DNA from: a virus
Lineage: Duplodnaviria > Caudoviricetes
DNA: 64,000 nucleotides
Reading direction: 5' to 3' (one strand)
IMG/VR virus record: IMGVR_UViG_3300046531_000318
Location: 28,867 to 92,866 of that record
Made by a program: the position numbers and the translations under genes. Shown here in pieces: positions 55,399 to 63,548 of the stretch. The notes beneath the pieces were generated by a model. The model ran no database searches, had not been told where the DNA came from, and saw nothing but the letters and a program-made list of their open reading frames with translations. The stretch's first letter is position 1; each line of letters opens with the position of its first letter.

Positions 55399-56403
55399 AT
55401 GTATCACTCATTCGATACGGAGCACGCCAGGCTGTACGGCCTGGCCGAGGCCGTCGTCATTTACAACCTTCAGTTCTGGATTGTCCGCAACCGGGCAAAC
55501 GGCGAGCATTTCCACGATGGGCGGACCTGGTCGTACAACAGCGTTCGGGCGTTTGAGAAGGTGTTCGATTATCTGTCGCCTAAGCAGATCCGCGGCGCGC
55601 TCGAGCGACTGGAAGAAAAGGGTGTTCTGGTGACGGGTCGCTACAGCGACGACGCGCGCGATCGCACGAAGTGGTACGCGTTTTCCGACGAAAAACGCTT
55701 CCTCGACGGCGTCACTCCGCATTCGCCCTCTAGGGCAAATGCAAGCGACCAAGGCGGCGAGACTGATTCGCCCTCCGGGGCAAATGCGCGTGCCGGCAGG
55801 GGCAAATCCCTAATAAGGACAGATGTAAACGCAAATAAAAAACCAGATACTGTGTCCCCCCCTCGGTCGCAAGGCACCCGTCTTTCCGAGGGTTGGGTGC
55901 TGACGTTGAAGTGGGCGCGCTGGGCACTTGAGGATCCGGCCGTGAACAAGGCGGAGCAGTGGACCGAGGAGCATCTCCGGCTGCAGGCGGACAAGTTCCG
56001 CGATCACTGGCACGCGAAGTCGGGCAAGGACGCCCGCAAGGTCGACTGGTTCGCCACCTGGCGTAACTGGTGCCGCGACTCGAAGGCCGCTATGCCGGCC
56101 GCACGCCGGAGCGGTGGTGGGGCGTGGTGGCTGTCGCCTGAGTCACGCAAAGCGAAGGCGCTTGAGGTCGGTGTCGGCGAGCCGAACCCGGGCGAGAGCG
56201 ACGCCTCTTACCAGTCCCGCATTCAGGCTGCGATCGACAACGGCGGCAAGCCGCCTGCGCCGCGACCGGTGCCGGTCACCCCACTGGATCCTGTCCCGGT
56301 GCCCAGCGAGCCCGCAGAGCGTGGCTCTGATCTCTCTCGTGCCGCGACGTCAGCTGCGATCGCTCTGCTGCGCCAGAAGAACGCAGGGGGCGCGTCCGCA
56401 TGA
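55399..56403 (+). CDS. Phage replication initiator (O/DnaT-like)
   Basis: wHTH N-terminus (YG..EA......FWI..N, W.YNS, DRTKWY), central repeats, F.D.W......DW.ATWRNW C-terminus. Confidence 0.85.
   Translation: MYHSFDTEHARLYGLAEAVVIYNLQFWIVRNRANGEHFHDGRTWSYNSVRAFEKVFDYLSPKQIRGALERLEEKGVLVTGRYSDDARDRTKWYAFSDEKRFLDGVTPHSPSRANASDQGGETDSPSGANARAGRGKSLIRTDVNANKKPDTVSPPRSQGTRLSEGWVLTLKWARWALEDPAVNKAEQWTEEHLRLQADKFRDHWHAKSGKDARKVDWFATWRNWCRDSKAAMPAARRSGGGAWWLSPESRKAKALEVGVGEPNPGESDASYQSRIQAAIDNGGKPPAPRPVPVTPLDPVPVPSEPAERGSDLSRAATSAAIALLRQKNAGGASA
55721..55845. repeat. Lytic replication origin inside the O-like gene
   Basis: ATTCGCCCTC(T/C)(A/G)GGGCAAATGC x2 (55721, 55766) plus a degenerate third copy, then an A-rich tract. 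Confidence 0.7.
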
Positions 56404-56936
56404 GTTCCGGTCTGCATTGGACTCCCGAGGCCTACGCCGAATTCCTGCGCAAGCGGGGCGCTCAGACGCCTCCTGTGGCATCGCCCGCACCTGTGCCAGT
56501 GGTTGCTGCTCCTGTGGCGGCCGAGCCCGCTAAAAGCCTGTCTGCAGAAGAAACAAAGGTGCTCCGCGCACATCGCTCGAAACAGGCGTTTCAGGCGCTC
56601 GGGCGTCTGCCGAAAGGCGAATTCAATAAGACGGAGCGTGCGTACGCGGATTTCCTCGAGGAGCGCAAGCGCGTCGGGCAGGTGCTGTGGTGGAAGTTTC
56701 ACCCGATGCGCGTGCGACTCGCGAACAACACGTTTTACGAGGTCGACTTCCTGGTGATGTCCGCCGACGGCGTGCTCGAGATTCACGAAACAAAGGGCGG
56801 TTTCACGACCGACAAGGGCCAGCTCAAGCTGAAGCTGTGCGGCGAGGCGCTGCCGGTGTTCCGGATGTTCAAGGTCATCAAGCAAACGAAGAAGGCCGGC
56901 GGGGGCTGGCAAATCGAGGAGTACTCGGCGACATGA
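56400..56936 (+). CDS. PD-(D/E)XK endonuclease (DUF1064-like)
   Basis: NKTE..Y, Y..DF.V, IHETKG. Confidence 0.78.
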   Translation: MSSGLHWTPEAYAEFLRKRGAQTPPVASPAPVPVVAAPVAAEPAKSLSAEETKVLRAHRSKQAFQALGRLPKGEFNKTERAYADFLEERKRVGQVLWWKFHPMRVRLANNTFYEVDFLVMSADGVLEIHETKGGFTTDKGQLKLKLCGEALPVFRMFKVIKQTKKAGGGWQIEEYSAT

Positions 56937-58118: not shown

Positions 58119-58814
58119 ATGAACGATCTGATCTTGCCCGCAGACGGGCTGACCATGAGCAGTCGCGAGATTGCCGATCTCGTCGGCGCGCGGCACAACG
58201 ACGTCATCGCGACCATCGAGCGGCTGTTCGGTAAAGGGGTTTTACGAGAAAGTCGTAAAACCCCGCGCCTCTATGCGCCGCCGGGTGGCGGGCGTCCCAC
58301 AGCAGTGTTCGACCTCACCAAGCGCGACTCGCTGGTGGTGGCCGCCGGGTACAACGACGAGATGCGTGCCCGGATCATTGACCGCTGGCAGGAGCTTGAG
58401 GCTCGGGCGGTGCCGGCGACCATGTTCGTCGTCCCCAAGACCTTGAGCGAGGCGCTGCGGCTCGCAGCCGATCAGGCCGACCGCGCTGACCGCGCCGAGC
58501 AGCAGCTGGTCGCGCAGGCACCGAAGGTGGAGTTCGCGGAGACGGTTCGCAACATGGAGGCGGGCTTGACGATGCTGCAAATGGCGAAGCTCATCGGCTG
58601 GGGGCGCAACAAGCTCATGGCCGCGATGCGTGAGAACGGCATCCTTACTCCGCACAACGTTCCCTACCAGAAGTACATCGACCGCGGCTATTTCACGGTT
58701 GCCGAGTCGACGGTCAAGCGCACGGGCGGCGTCGTTCCGGTTCTGTCGACGCTGGTCACCGGGGCGGGGCAGGTGTTCCTGCAGCGCAAGTTCGCCGGGC
58801 AGGCTGCTGCGTAA
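58119..58814 (+). CDS. ant: Antirepressor (Rha-like N-terminus + KilAC/ANT C-terminus)
   Basis: TMSSREIA.L....H..V, R..IIDRW.ELE, P.T..EALRLAAD, PKV.F, PYQ.YIDRGYF, VTG.GQ. Confidence 0.88.
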   Translation: MNDLILPADGLTMSSREIADLVGARHNDVIATIERLFGKGVLRESRKTPRLYAPPGGGRPTAVFDLTKRDSLVVAAGYNDEMRARIIDRWQELEARAVPATMFVVPKTLSEALRLAADQADRADRAEQQLVAQAPKVEFAETVRNMEAGLTMLQMAKLIGWGRNKLMAAMRENGILTPHNVPYQKYIDRGYFTVAESTVKRTGGVVPVLSTLVTGAGQVFLQRKFAGQAAA

Positions 58815-59206: not shown

Positions 59207-59560
59207 GGCAAGCGGAGGCGCCCAGCAGGGAGAAGTGGTTACCGGGGCTTTTGCCGACTTCACCGGTGGCCGCCGTGGCGCCATGAATAACCCCTGCAGA
59301 TGCGAACGCGGAGGGCGCGGTGCGGCTGCCTCGTCCTTTCCTCCGTCAGCGGATCGACGTCGCGTGTCGCATCGGACAGCCGGGAAAGACCGGCACCCTT
59401 CTTCAGCATGGGCGCTTCAATGATGCGTACTCCCTTTTGCCGGCTGATCCACTTCTTCGGTGGCAGTGCGGGTTGCGAGCGGCATGAGGAGCGTGTTCCG
59501 CACGCTTCGCTCATGCTGGTCGTGAGCCTCGACGGCGGTAATCAACTCAGGACGGATGCG

Positions 59561-59995
59561 ATGGATCTCACTTTGAAAGACGACGCAAGCAAGACGTTTG
59601 CGGTGGTGTTGAAGGACAAGTTTGGCGCGGTCGCGCAGGCGAGCGGCGCTCTGTCGGTCGCAAGCTCGGACGAGTCGATCGCCGTGGCGACGCTCTCGAG
59701 CGACGGCCAGTCGCTTTCCGTGGCCGCTGCCGGCGCGGGCAAGCTGGGCACCGCCACCGTTACCGTTTCGGACGAAGCGGACAACGTGTCGGCCGTGGTG
59801 AATGTGACGGTGGTGGCGGGTTCGCCGGCGTCGATCGAACTGACCGAGGTTGTCGCATCGACGGACGCAAGCTCGGCAAGCACGACGACCGCAGAGGCGA
59901 CGGCTGCTGCAGCAACCGACGCGCCGGCCGCGACCGATGCTGCTGCCTCGAGTGGCGACGCTGCTGCTTCGACGGACACCGCAGCCGCGCAGTAA
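59561..59995 (+). CDS. Ig-like (Big2) domain protein with Ala/Thr-rich tail; possibly a virion decoration protein
   Basis: DKFG, SSDESIAV, G.ATVTV, V.V.V.A; start could lie further upstream (~59420). Confidence 0.7.
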   Translation: MDLTLKDDASKTFAVVLKDKFGAVAQASGALSVASSDESIAVATLSSDGQSLSVAAAGAGKLGTATVTVSDEADNVSAVVNVTVVAGSPASIELTEVVASTDASSASTTTAEATAAAATDAPAATDAAASSGDAAASTDTAAAQ

Positions 59996-60040: not shown

Positions 60041-60073
60041 GGGAGGCCCGCTTCGGCGGGCTTCCTTATTTTT
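60041..60073 (+). terminator. Rho-independent terminator
   Basis: GGAGGCCCGC-TTCG-GCGGGCTTCC followed by TTATTTTT. Confidence 0.8.
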
Positions 60074-60124
60074 CAGTGCGAAAAGCAGAAAACGATTGTG
60101 CGCGCAAAGCAGAATCGATATGAT
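60071..60124 (+). promoter_or_regulatory. Sigma70-type promoter of the RNA operon overlapped by two operators
   Basis: TTGTGC-N17-TATGAT (60096-60124); operators TTTCAGT-N7-GCAGAAA (60071-60091) and ATTGTGC-N7-GCAGAAT (60095-60115). Confidence 0.7.
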
Positions 60125-60248
60125 TTATCCCATGCGCTCGGTGCGGCCTCGCCACCAAGCGCAAGACTGAGCGGTCGGGTGGTCGCGCCCACCTGAAAAA
60201 AAGGCCGTAGCGGCAGTCGTGTTGGTTAGGAAGGCCGCTCAGTCACTC

Positions 60249-60329
60249 GTTGCGTAGGTCACCTGGTGGGACACCTGGCACAAGCAGCACGCCGGCTGGG
60301 GCCTGGTTCGATTCCGGCACGCGACGCCA
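60249..60329 (+). ncRNA. tRNA-like RNA lacking a canonical anticodon loop
   Basis: Acceptor GTTGCGT/ACGCGAC + G-CCA, D arm GTC/GAC with GG, T loop TTCGATT, but an 11-nt loop in the anticodon position. Confidence 0.65.
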
Positions 60330-60336
60330 AGATTTA

Positions 60337-60413
60337 GGCAGGGTAGGGAAGGTGGTCATCCCGTCGGGCTCATAACCCGAAGGTCGCAGGTTCGAATCCT
60401 GCCCCTGCAACCA
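60337..60413 (+). tRNA. tRNA-Met(CAT), initiator type
   Basis: Cloverleaf; 1:72 mismatch (G.A), G2:C71/C3:G70, three G:C pairs in anticodon stem TCGGG/CCCGA, encoded CCA. Confidence 0.93.
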
Positions 60414-60467
60414 GAGCAAAACGGCCGCAAAGATAGGGCGGCGCACGATCCCCGTAACGTGCCGAGT

Positions 60468-61376
60468 GACTGGCGTAACGCAGTCGTCTCACGCATGGCG
60501 ACTGATAGCAGGGTGCGCACCTGCCGATGGACCGAGTCTGTTGAAACAGGGCAGATAGCGAAGTCGGTACAGCCGCCATGACGTGAGAGCGAATCCCGAA
60601 AGGGACGACGGAGTTTGCCGCCAGCGCGCTTGCGCGTTGACCGATGCGCCTTCGGGTTGGCAGTGCGCGGCACGCTCTCAACGAGTGCGAACCGAGCCAG
60701 TATGGTGACAGCGGACCCGCGTCTATTGCGGGTGGCGCTCACGGACCAGACCGCTCCAGAGCACGGCGCTAAAGTCCAAGCTACCGGGACATGAGCGGGG
60801 GAGGGGCCCGCACTCTCATGTATGGCGATGCAGTTCCCCCAGGCGGCGGCTGAGTAAAAACCCAGACTCCCCACTGCCCGGCTGGTTCGGCGTCGTCATT
60901 CATGAGGGTGACAGCCGCCGAGGTCGCACCGGCAGCACACTGCCTGGAGGGCCTCTGTGCTTGGACGAGTTCTCGCCCATACCGGAACCGCTCGGCGCCG
61001 CCACGTGTATATGGCTTCCCTCGATTTACTACGTTGCATCGTAGCCACCAGTGGTAACGCCGGGAGGCGCTCCTGACTCCGCCGGGGAAAGACCGGCACC
61101 TTCACGCATGTCGATGGACGGTGCAGGTTCGTGAATCAACCTGCATTGAACCACCAGGGAATGGGGCCGCACCCATCGGCATTCGTGAGGGTGAAGTGCG
61201 AAGCGTCAGGAGGGAGCCAGCGCAGTGCTGGCGCCTCGCGTCACTCTCGAAGTGGAAGGCTCCGGTACGCAATCCGGCGAGTTGGTGGAAAGCCAGCACT
61301 CTCAAGCATGGCGACTGGATGTTTTCCCCGCGGACGGCGCGAACAACCTTCCGGTCCAGTCGTCATGGCTGAGAGT
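60468..61376 (+). ncRNA. Array of four structured repeat units (T-arm-like hairpin + conserved ~20-bp stem around unique cargo)
   Basis: Units 60487-60588, 60811-60910, 61097-61193, 61298-61376 share arms RCYYTCANG(C/T)ATG(G/T)CGA and CG(C/T/G)CAT..NTGAGRG with compensatory changes; no credible ORFs. Confidence 0.75.
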
Positions 61377-61515: not shown

Positions 61516-61591
61516 GCGGGATTAGCTCAGATGGTAGAGCATCGGTTTTCCAAGCCGACTGTCGCCGGTTCGAAGCCGGCATCCCGCTCCA
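61516..61591 (+). tRNA. tRNA-Gly(TCC)
   Basis: GCGGGAT/ATCCCGC acceptor, AGCTCAG..GGTAGAGC D arm, anticodon TCC, GGTTCGA T arm, T-CCA end. Confidence 0.93.
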
Positions 61592-61627
61592 AGTGGTCTC
61601 TCGCGCTAACCCCGTAGCGTGTGATTT

Positions 61628-61653
61628 GGCGCCCCGAGTGGGCGCCTTTTTTT
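61628..61653 (+). terminator. Terminator closing the RNA operon
   Basis: GGCGCCC-CGAGT-GGGCGCC followed by T7. Confidence 0.8.
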
Positions 61654-62901: not shown

Positions 62902-63156
62902 TCAGTAGTCTCGGGTCTTGAGCAGCACGTCGACGGAAAGCACACACAGGTCGTCGGGCAGTCCGTAGCCGCGTTGGATGTGCGTCACGCGCTCGAAGAT
63001 CACGCGACCCGTCTCGATGCTGTCCCGTCGCTCGACCAGCTTTAGCGTGTCGTCCACTGCGTAGCCGCGGTCGTCCTTGCGGACCTCGGCGCGTTTCTTT
63101 CCGTCCCAAGTGTCGGAGAAGGGCTGATGGTCGCATTTGAGTACGTGCACGGTCAT
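62902..63156 (-). CDS. DUF3850 (ASCH/PUA-like) protein
   Basis: H.LK....F.....G.K..E.R..DR.Y.V.D.L.L.E; GGAGG RBS. Confidence 0.8.
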   Translation of the reverse strand: MTVHVLKCDHQPFSDTWDGKKRAEVRKDDRGYAVDDTLKLVERRDSIETGRVIFERVTHIQRGYGLPDDLCVLSVDVLLKTRDY

Positions 63157-63548
63157 TGGGCGGTGCCTCCTTTGAGAAGGGCGGCCGGCCCGGCGGGCGC
63201 GCACATGTAGGCGGTGACGGACGCGGTGATGTTTTGATGCTCGGTGTGCCATCCGTCGTGATACGTGAACGCCTTCGGCATGCTGGTGAACGCGTCGAAT
63301 TCGACCATGATCGGGGCAGTGCTGCGGATCTCCCACTCGTTATCTGGCTCGAGCATCACCAGGTAATCGCCGGGCTCCGTGGGCATGCCTTGGCCGATCA
63401 GGGTCCACATCATCGCCGGCTTCGTCTGCGCTTCGAGTTCGGCTATGCGGGCGGCTTGCTGATCGATGAGGTCGGCAGCTTCTTTGCGGTCTGCGTACGT
63501 CATGTACCCCTCAAGTCGAAGCAGCTTAACCAGTTCATCTTTGCTCAT
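63153..63548 (-). CDS. Hypothetical phage protein (DUF551-like C-terminus)
   Basis: EAADLI..Q..RIAELE, W.....P...G.YLV; GGAG RBS. Confidence 0.65.
   Translation of the reverse strand: MSKDELVKLLRLEGYMTYADRKEAADLIDQQAARIAELEAQTKPAMMWTLIGQGMPTEPGDYLVMLEPDNEWEIRSTAPIMVEFDAFTSMPKAFTYHDGWHTEHQNITASVTAYMCAPAGPAALLKGGTAQ

Follow-up and report, generated by a model that had tools for sequence, protein, structure and literature searches.

The four stem-closed RNA units that lie between two tRNA genes of this virus belong to a family of small, structured and hitherto unannotated RNAs which occurs among the tRNA genes of Burkholderia-type phages. The window, that is, the whole stretch of DNA analysed, consists of the final 64 kb of a 92,866-bp IMG/VR virus record (G000), and gene annotation places the array in the early/replication part of a temperate phage. 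The family is tentatively read as a group of tRNA-derived modules that would be released or stabilised through a leader-trailer helix of RNase III substrate size, with a probability of roughly 0.45. Units A-D occupy an ORF-free stretch between tRNA-Met and tRNA-Gly with a terminator downstream, and the features of the region are listed below; the scores of the units are those of R1, a covariance model with 20 base pairs built from 13 well-aligned units.

55399-56403, annotated gene: replication initiator
56400-56936, annotated gene: RusA-like resolvase
58119-58814, annotated gene: Ant/KilAC antirepressor
59300-59995: uncharacterised Ala/Thr-rich ORF, the gene directly upstream of the array
60041-60076, + strand: intrinsic terminator of the upstream gene (59300-59995), hairpin 60041-60066, from the terminator scan
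60096-60124, + strand: weak candidate promoter of the sequence-only reading, under the scan's consensus threshold
60167-60245, + strand: stem-closed leader element with a perfect 10-bp closing helix GACTGAGCGG/CCGCTCAGTC, unlike the unit arms in sequence
60249-60329, + strand: tRNA-like element with a T-loop and a CCA end, under tRNA thresholds
60337-60413, + strand: tRNA-Met (CAT), ARAGORN and Rfam, 61.8 bits
60414-60481, + strand: trailer block of two small hairpins, kept upstream of units in L060, L038, Bcep22 and BcepMigl
60482-60593, + strand: unit A, R1 scaffold with a 65-nt interior (three-way junction), 62.1 bits on +, 30.7 on -
60809-60912, + strand: unit B, R1 scaffold with a 58-nt interior (long imperfect hairpin), 36.5 bits on +, 21.0 on -
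61095-61195, + strand: unit C, R1 scaffold with a 55-nt interior (two hairpins), 46.3 bits on +, 30.7 on -
61250-61290, + strand: conserved spacer module GGAAGGCTCCGGTACGCAATCCGGCGAG, also in L060, L083/L102 and Bordetella phage PHB04
61295-61379, + strand: unit D, R1 scaffold with a 35-nt interior, 58.4 bits on +, 36.8 on -
61516-61591, + strand: tRNA-Gly (TCC), ARAGORN and Rfam, 65.5 bits
61595-61653, + strand: trailer hairpin and intrinsic terminator (61628-61646 plus T-run)
Downstream of the array, opposite strand: uncharacterised 345-aa ORF
62902-63336, - strand: DUF3850/ASCH-type protein, PHROG label 'RNA-binding protein'

The terminator at 60041-60076 closes the upstream gene and thereby marks the array off as a separate transcription unit. 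Of the signals that an earlier, sequence-only reading had assigned to this unit, the downstream terminator was detected by the scan, whereas the promoter remained under its threshold; the two flanking tRNAs of that reading are genuine. The stretch 60130-60248, which includes the stem-closed leader element, folds at z = -4.77, and the leader is followed directly by the tRNA-like element (tRNA-Sec model, 22.4 bits against a gathering score of 47) and then by tRNA-Met. The latter bears two initiator-like marks, a 1.72 mismatch flagged in the covariance-model alignment and three consecutive G-C pairs adjoining the anticodon loop. Similar hairpins (a GCRCG-loop ending in CCGUAR-CGYGC) stand at 60442-60461 after tRNA-Met and at 61602-61621 after tRNA-Gly, and tRNA-Gly together with its trailer resembles a Burkholderia chromosomal locus (Rfam Bp1_781, 61523-61653), the match of 50.7 bits not reaching the gathering score of 80. 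The DUF3850/ASCH gene is located about 1.3 kb from the array and is absent near the other arrays examined.

The array contains no credible ORF, as the sequence-only reading had maintained. The codon-position GC pattern that marks the neighbouring genes is missing from the ORFs within it (GC3 of 0.57-0.68 versus 0.60-0.83 and GC2 of 0.55-0.65 versus 0.44-0.59), and the largest of them has no Pfam or PHROG match. A small-ORF reading of the ATG-GCG in the 5′ arms was rejected: the frames stop after 8 to more than 50 codons, no ribosome-binding site is found, and the codon-position GC signal is likewise absent from the array.

The same reading had described four pairs of arms around different interiors, and all eight arm sequences lie where it had placed them. 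Each of the four units forms a stem of about 20 bp with a central irregularity, and the interiors of 65, 58, 55 and 35 nt are mutually unrelated in sequence. The anatomy of the common scaffold follows from 28 distinct units, the length of which is 80-110 nt in the R1 family. First, an outer helix of 8-11 bp, at most 15 bp (YYUCAYG/CRUGARRG), is followed by a C that is conserved in 27 of the 28 units. Next, an inner helix of 7-10 bp (7-14 bp at the widest), usually extending to about 10 bp, opens with C-AUGGCG/CGCCAU, and the whole helix measures about 16-25 bp; that UCA and AUGGCG do not vary is in part owed to ascertainment, as the search patterns fixed much of that part. Finally, one irregularity is always present at or beside the junction of the two helices. 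It takes the form of a mismatch (C.U, C.C or C.A), an A or G bulging out opposite, an adjacent C.U mismatch or a 2x2 loop.

The pairing of the scaffold is evidently maintained at the RNA level. Over the 28 units there are 451 Watson-Crick, 56 G-U and 10 A-C pairs, and the large excess of G-U over A-C indicates that one strand folds, which fits an RNA. Pairs outside the search patterns covary (CG16/UA8/UG4, UG14/CG9/UA4 and AU18/GC3/CG1), the covariation score of the 13-unit seed alignment was reached by none of 500 shuffles, and shifting the partner columns in that alignment destroys the pairing. Every unit scores higher with R1 on the same (+) sense than on the reverse strand, by about 15-31 bits for units A-D. 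The covariation and the G-U excess thus bear out the proposed selection on + strand RNA structure.

This strand asymmetry also weighs against the possibility that the units act as DNA, whether as inverted-repeat ends of small mobile cassettes, as recombination sites or as homing-endonuclease targets. The arms are sequence-conserved inverted repeats, the unit in the Burkholderia phage Bcep22 is flanked by two HNH endonuclease genes, and Bcep22 and BcepMigl differ in flanking genes, all of which would suit such an element. However, besides the 56:10 ratio of G-U to A-C on one strand and the higher score of every unit on it, no target-site duplications were seen in the window, the arms display no attC core motif, and a host genome carries the units at a single locus and not as a dispersed repeat, so that a DNA-level element has little probability.

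The structural signal is confined to the units. Compared with dinucleotide shuffles, units A, B, C and D fold at z = -3.62, -4.89, -4.31 and -4.74, respectively, while the four spacers (z = +0.74, +0.73, +0.37 and -0.92) display no excess structure; the signal therefore sits in the units and not in the spacers. The spacers had been thought rich in hairpins, which these values do not bear out, and the predicted release of 8-9 distinct small RNAs is left unsupported, since it counted on spacers that are not detectably structured. The values likewise bear on whether the region could be a single RNA of about 1.2 kb, large and multi-domain like GOLLD or ROOL, in which the units are domains. In keeping with such an RNA, the array is phage-borne and adjoins tRNAs, and some spacer motifs recur between loci, namely GGTGACAGCC after the 3′ arms and the CCGGTACGCAA module. 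Nevertheless, the spacers do not exceed shuffles in stability, loci vary in how many units they have and in what order, an apparent ORF intervenes between the units of the locus L060, and there is no Rfam match, which together render a single large RNA hardly probable at all.

Several small features accompany the units. The motif GGTGACAGCC stands directly after unit 3′ arms at 60716-60731 and 60919-60934 in the window and in L004, L056 and L057, and a small CCGG-loop-CCGG hairpin often directly precedes the 5′ arm. The ORF in L060, on the - strand at about 2037-1735, is Ala/Thr-rich, codes for about 100 aa and resembles the low-complexity C-terminus of the ORF at 59300-59995. The unit array of L056 is followed, some 1.3 kb downstream, by a C4 antisense RNA (2869-2955, 61.7 bits in Rfam), and in the same locus an acyl-carrier-protein-like ORF is found upstream of a tRNA-Glu/Asp pair.

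Relatives of the window units were collected by pattern scans of viral, genome and metagenome collections, from which many chance matches had to be removed; the paired 3′ arm is absent from L002, L003, L005 and L007-L010, from 34 of the 35 genome-contig loci and from about 18 of the 29 metagenome loci. With R1, 28 distinct units were obtained in about 20 other (pro)phage loci: L004, L046, L056, L057, L060, L064, L070, L071, L083, L089, L095-L106 and the second virus record G002, of 93.6 kb. Among cultured phages, Bcep22 of Burkholderia possesses one unit (NC_005262, 9179-9266; R1, 42.4 bits) in an unannotated 420-nt gap between the two HNH genes, downstream of a cro-like gene and tRNA-Ser. The match in BcepMigl is weaker and diverged (25.3 bits); this copy keeps the outer helix and the C, and its inner helix is different but compensated. 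Of 401 genomes sampled from the family to which the Paraburkholderia MAG belongs, 4 contain a unit according to a strict pattern. In four host genomes the units are found at one locus each, and in G000 and G002 they are confined to the array. G000 and G002 have almost only replication and partition-type proteins in common, which is consistent with G000 being a temperate phage-plasmid, and no DNA similarity was detected between them, yet both carry the scaffold. A literature search found no description of these units.

No partner protein appears to travel with the family. Relatives syntenic with the window were sought by means of the downstream 345-aa ORF and none were found, nor was any ORF family common to the neighbours in the window and those at the other loci; the only proteins that recur among the latter are an SSB and, at 5 loci, one of about 390 aa with an HTH. 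In the comparison of the window neighbours with the other loci, no recurrent partner of the units thus emerged.

The number of units per locus ranges from 1 to 4 and the interiors turn over between phages, as the covariance-model search has established. Across the family the interiors are 35-70 nt long and fall into about 25 unrelated types among the 28 units. Detectable sequence similarity is limited to three pairs, and the interiors of L056 and Bcep22 form a fourth pair, recognisable by eye as orthologues whose stems have changed in a compensatory manner. A minimal loop is present in no unit, the interiors instead folding into rods, three-way junctions or cloverleaves. Since the interiors are mostly unrelated and never minimal loops, the design of a constant scaffold with a variable interior, first suggested for the window, holds for the family of 28 distinct units as a whole.

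The purpose that had been attached to this design fares less well. In the sequence-only reading the array is a programmable cassette array, the variable interiors of which serve as guides, regulators or decoys for specific nucleic-acid targets, and a constant scaffold with hypervariable interiors across about 20 loci, together with the variation from 1 to 4 units, is what such an array would display. However, antisense matches of at least 14 nt between the interiors or spacers and the phage's own genome do not exceed those of shuffled controls, which leaves the guide or regulator idea without support. In addition, no effector protein is associated with the units, and genes for reverse transcriptase, TROVE proteins and RNase III are absent from both phage genomes, G000 and G002. 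A programmable array of this kind is thus quite improbable.

A different origin of the scaffold is suggested by its relatives, a point that does not figure in the sequence-only account: the scaffold seems to be an extended tRNA acceptor stem. The clearest case is the unit at 2222-2321 on the - strand of L095, which ARAGORN calls a tRNA-Gly and to which the Rfam tRNA model, with its gathering score of 29, gives 37.8 bits (2233-2309, - strand). Here, C-AUGGCG corresponds to tRNA positions 1-7, with U8-A9 and a normal D arm coming next; a 1.72 mismatch makes up the irregularity, and a leader-trailer duplex the outer helix. Units from three different loci, L046, L096 and L104, adopt a common four-way cloverleaf that starts with CATGGCG-TA/TG-GCTC, has an anticodon-like arm with a seven-nucleotide loop and keeps the pairing of the third arm by compensatory changes; in these three as well as in L095, TA/TG and a GCTC D-stem come after CATGGCG. 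A tRNA-like gene of G002 that has a long insertion (43.7 bits) is immediately bordered by the outer helix of the scaffold, and many loci contain T-loop-bearing fragments that are not called as tRNAs.

On the strength of the tRNA in L095, the cloverleaf of L046, L096 and L104, the tRNA-like gene of G002 and the T-loop fragments, the units are read as tRNA-derived. In these relatives the inner helix corresponds to the acceptor stem, and in the window it probably does so too. ARAGORN finds no tRNA in units A-D and the Rfam tRNA model gives no match there at E <= 10; as the interiors in the window are themselves not tRNA-like, the tRNA descent of these four units rests on the common scaffold. The family is thereby newly linked to tRNA, seemingly having kept the acceptor stem and its leader-trailer extension while the body diverged.

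The units might instead be decaying tRNA pseudogenes without function. The graded series from tRNA-like to non-tRNA interiors and the degenerate tRNA-like elements nearby would be expected of decay. In contrast, the scaffold is kept and covaries across phages with almost no other DNA in common, and stable folds are retained, and decay without function accordingly deserves very little weight.

The favoured reading, in which tRNA-derived modules are released or stabilised through the scaffold helix, can be drawn out as follows. The units would descend from tRNA, their interiors having diverged from the cloverleaf to three-way junctions and rods, and they would be co-transcribed with the true tRNAs. 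The helix of about 20 bp with its central irregularity would act as a processing and stability determinant and, judging by helix geometry only, would most likely be cut by host RNase III, as happens in rRNA operons and in T7 early RNA. Cleavage would set each interior free as an RNA of tRNA size, its ends paired. The stems do have the geometry of RNase III substrates, with 8-11 bp and 7-14 bp on the two sides of the junction irregularity, and at about 16-25 bp with a central irregularity they agree with the substrate size noted from the window alone. An RNase III gene is present in the sampled hosts, and G000 and G002 lack Ro/TROVE, reverse transcriptase and RNase III genes of their own.

Helices of this kind could also be nothing other than punctuation, i.e. 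processing or insulation hairpins of a tRNA/stable-RNA operon that resemble the R sites of T7 and are capped by functionless interiors. A two-turn helix with a central irregularity is suited to such a role, and the interiors are mostly unrelated to one another. A parallel is found in Bordetella phage PHB04 (L107, NC_047861, 45.1-47.8 kb), where a nearly ORF-free region of 2.7 kb contains tRNA-Met/Asn/Pro, an unannotated permuted tmRNA (RF04321, 104.5 bits, tag ANDDYIRAAA) and several stems of about 20 bp with a central mismatch. The sequences of these stems are unrelated to the unit scaffold, and stems so similar in form support a general processing role. An RNA of about 200 nt in the same region has 76% identity to part of L083 and includes the module that the window has at 61250-61290. 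On the other hand, no unit has a minimal loop, all interiors keeping 35-70 nt and a compact fold; some interior types are kept between different phages with compensatory changes, as in L056 and Bcep22; and the spacers, which would be the products, are not structured. Pure punctuation is for these reasons regarded as rather unlikely.

What the released modules would do is a matter of speculation. The preferred guess is that they are tRNA mimics or decoys, or binders of host factors, in the conflict between phage and host, as may be surmised from their descent from tRNA, from a size that is still tRNA-like and from interiors that turn over fast; antisense guides would fit these three traits less well. 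A more specific and doubtful version holds that the scaffold is a handle for a conserved host or phage factor and that the interiors form a repertoire of tRNA mimics or decoys against tRNA-targeting defences or toxins, or else a programmable payload. Phage tRNA clusters are now re-read as weapons against host tRNA-cleaving defences. Were the handle and mimic version true, the array would represent an RNA-based counter-defence of an undescribed kind, and should the scaffold have a dedicated binding factor, the two would make up a new ribonucleoprotein; if the stems are RNase III sites, they would provide a clean natural example of scaffolded small-RNA release in bacteria. In any case, the family adds to the phage tRNAs a recurrent RNA module outside Rfam, in which the acceptor stem appears locked in a conserved duplex and the body is free to diverge. 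The unit in Bcep22, a cultured phage of Burkholderia cenocepacia, and probably that in BcepMigl make expression, processing and knock-out phenotypes directly testable.

A number of known elements were considered and rejected. The array is not CRISPR, as had been stated earlier: the arms are inverted rather than direct, the spacing is irregular, and no cas gene is found among the annotated neighbours. Integron attC sites have the arrangement R''/L''-L'/R' with a GTTRRRY core and are associated with ORF cassettes and IntI; no such core can be seen in the arms, and credible ORFs are missing from the spacers. REP or MITE elements do not agree with one locus in each of the four host genomes and one in each phage. 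A retron ncRNA was dismissed in view of the absence of a reverse transcriptase (PF00078) from G000 and G002, and an RNase P-like reading of the GGAAAGCCCCGG module is not supported, no RNase P match having appeared. The C4 antisense RNA of P1/P7 (RF01695) has no match in the window.

With the covariance models of Rfam 15, nothing above chance was obtained at E <= 10 within 60468-61376, and only the flanking tRNAs pass; the view that the units are neither c4, GOLLD nor ROOL therefore agrees with the models. GOLLD and ROOL are likewise phage-borne and adjoin tRNA genes, whereas the units are short, modular and variable in number. The nearest phage precedent, compared by description only, is the tRNA region of phage T4, which gives rise to stable non-tRNA RNAs (species 1 and 2, or RNA C and D) of no established function inside a phage tRNA operon; these, however, are single copies without a common scaffold. 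The permuted tmRNA of PHB04 is another stable RNA in a comparable noncoding tRNA region, with a hairpin continuing the acceptor stem that must be removed, although neither ARAGORN nor Rfam detects a tmRNA in the window. With tRNA itself (RF00005) the units have in common the inner helix and the conserved C, equivalent to acceptor positions 1-7 and 66-72, and the co-location with true tRNAs as in phage tRNA clusters, and one relative passes the threshold of the model. By the same model the window units differ in having no D, anticodon or T arms, and the units encode no CCA, their ends being locked in the leader-trailer duplex.

Two further systems come closest. Y RNAs, including YrlA (RF02553), reportedly consist of an end stem with an irregularity and a variable distal module, occur as tandem paralogues and in some cases have tRNA-like modules; a conserved closing stem with a variable module, as YrlA is said to possess, is also the plan of the units. 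In the units, however, the long stem continues the acceptor stem and not the anticodon stem, and the Y_RNA and YrlA covariance models have no match in the window. The Ro/TROVE domain (PF05731) is absent from G000, G002 and four host genomes, the controls being positive, and without Ro the units do not belong among the Y RNAs. RNase III stems are known from the leader-trailer helices of 16S and 23S rRNA, from the R sites of phage T7 early RNA and from a processing step of the T4 tRNA cluster. They are similar to the units in forming a helix of about two turns from flanking sequences, with a central internal loop or bulge, that is repeated along a polycistronic stable-RNA or early transcript in the presence of the host enzyme. 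In contrast to them, the scaffold sequence of the units is conserved across unrelated phages, the units enclose a variable domain of 35-70 nt instead of rRNA or a simple loop, and their cleavage is suggested by geometry. Taken together, the units look most like Y RNAs in design and probably work most like the leader-trailer stems cut by RNase III.
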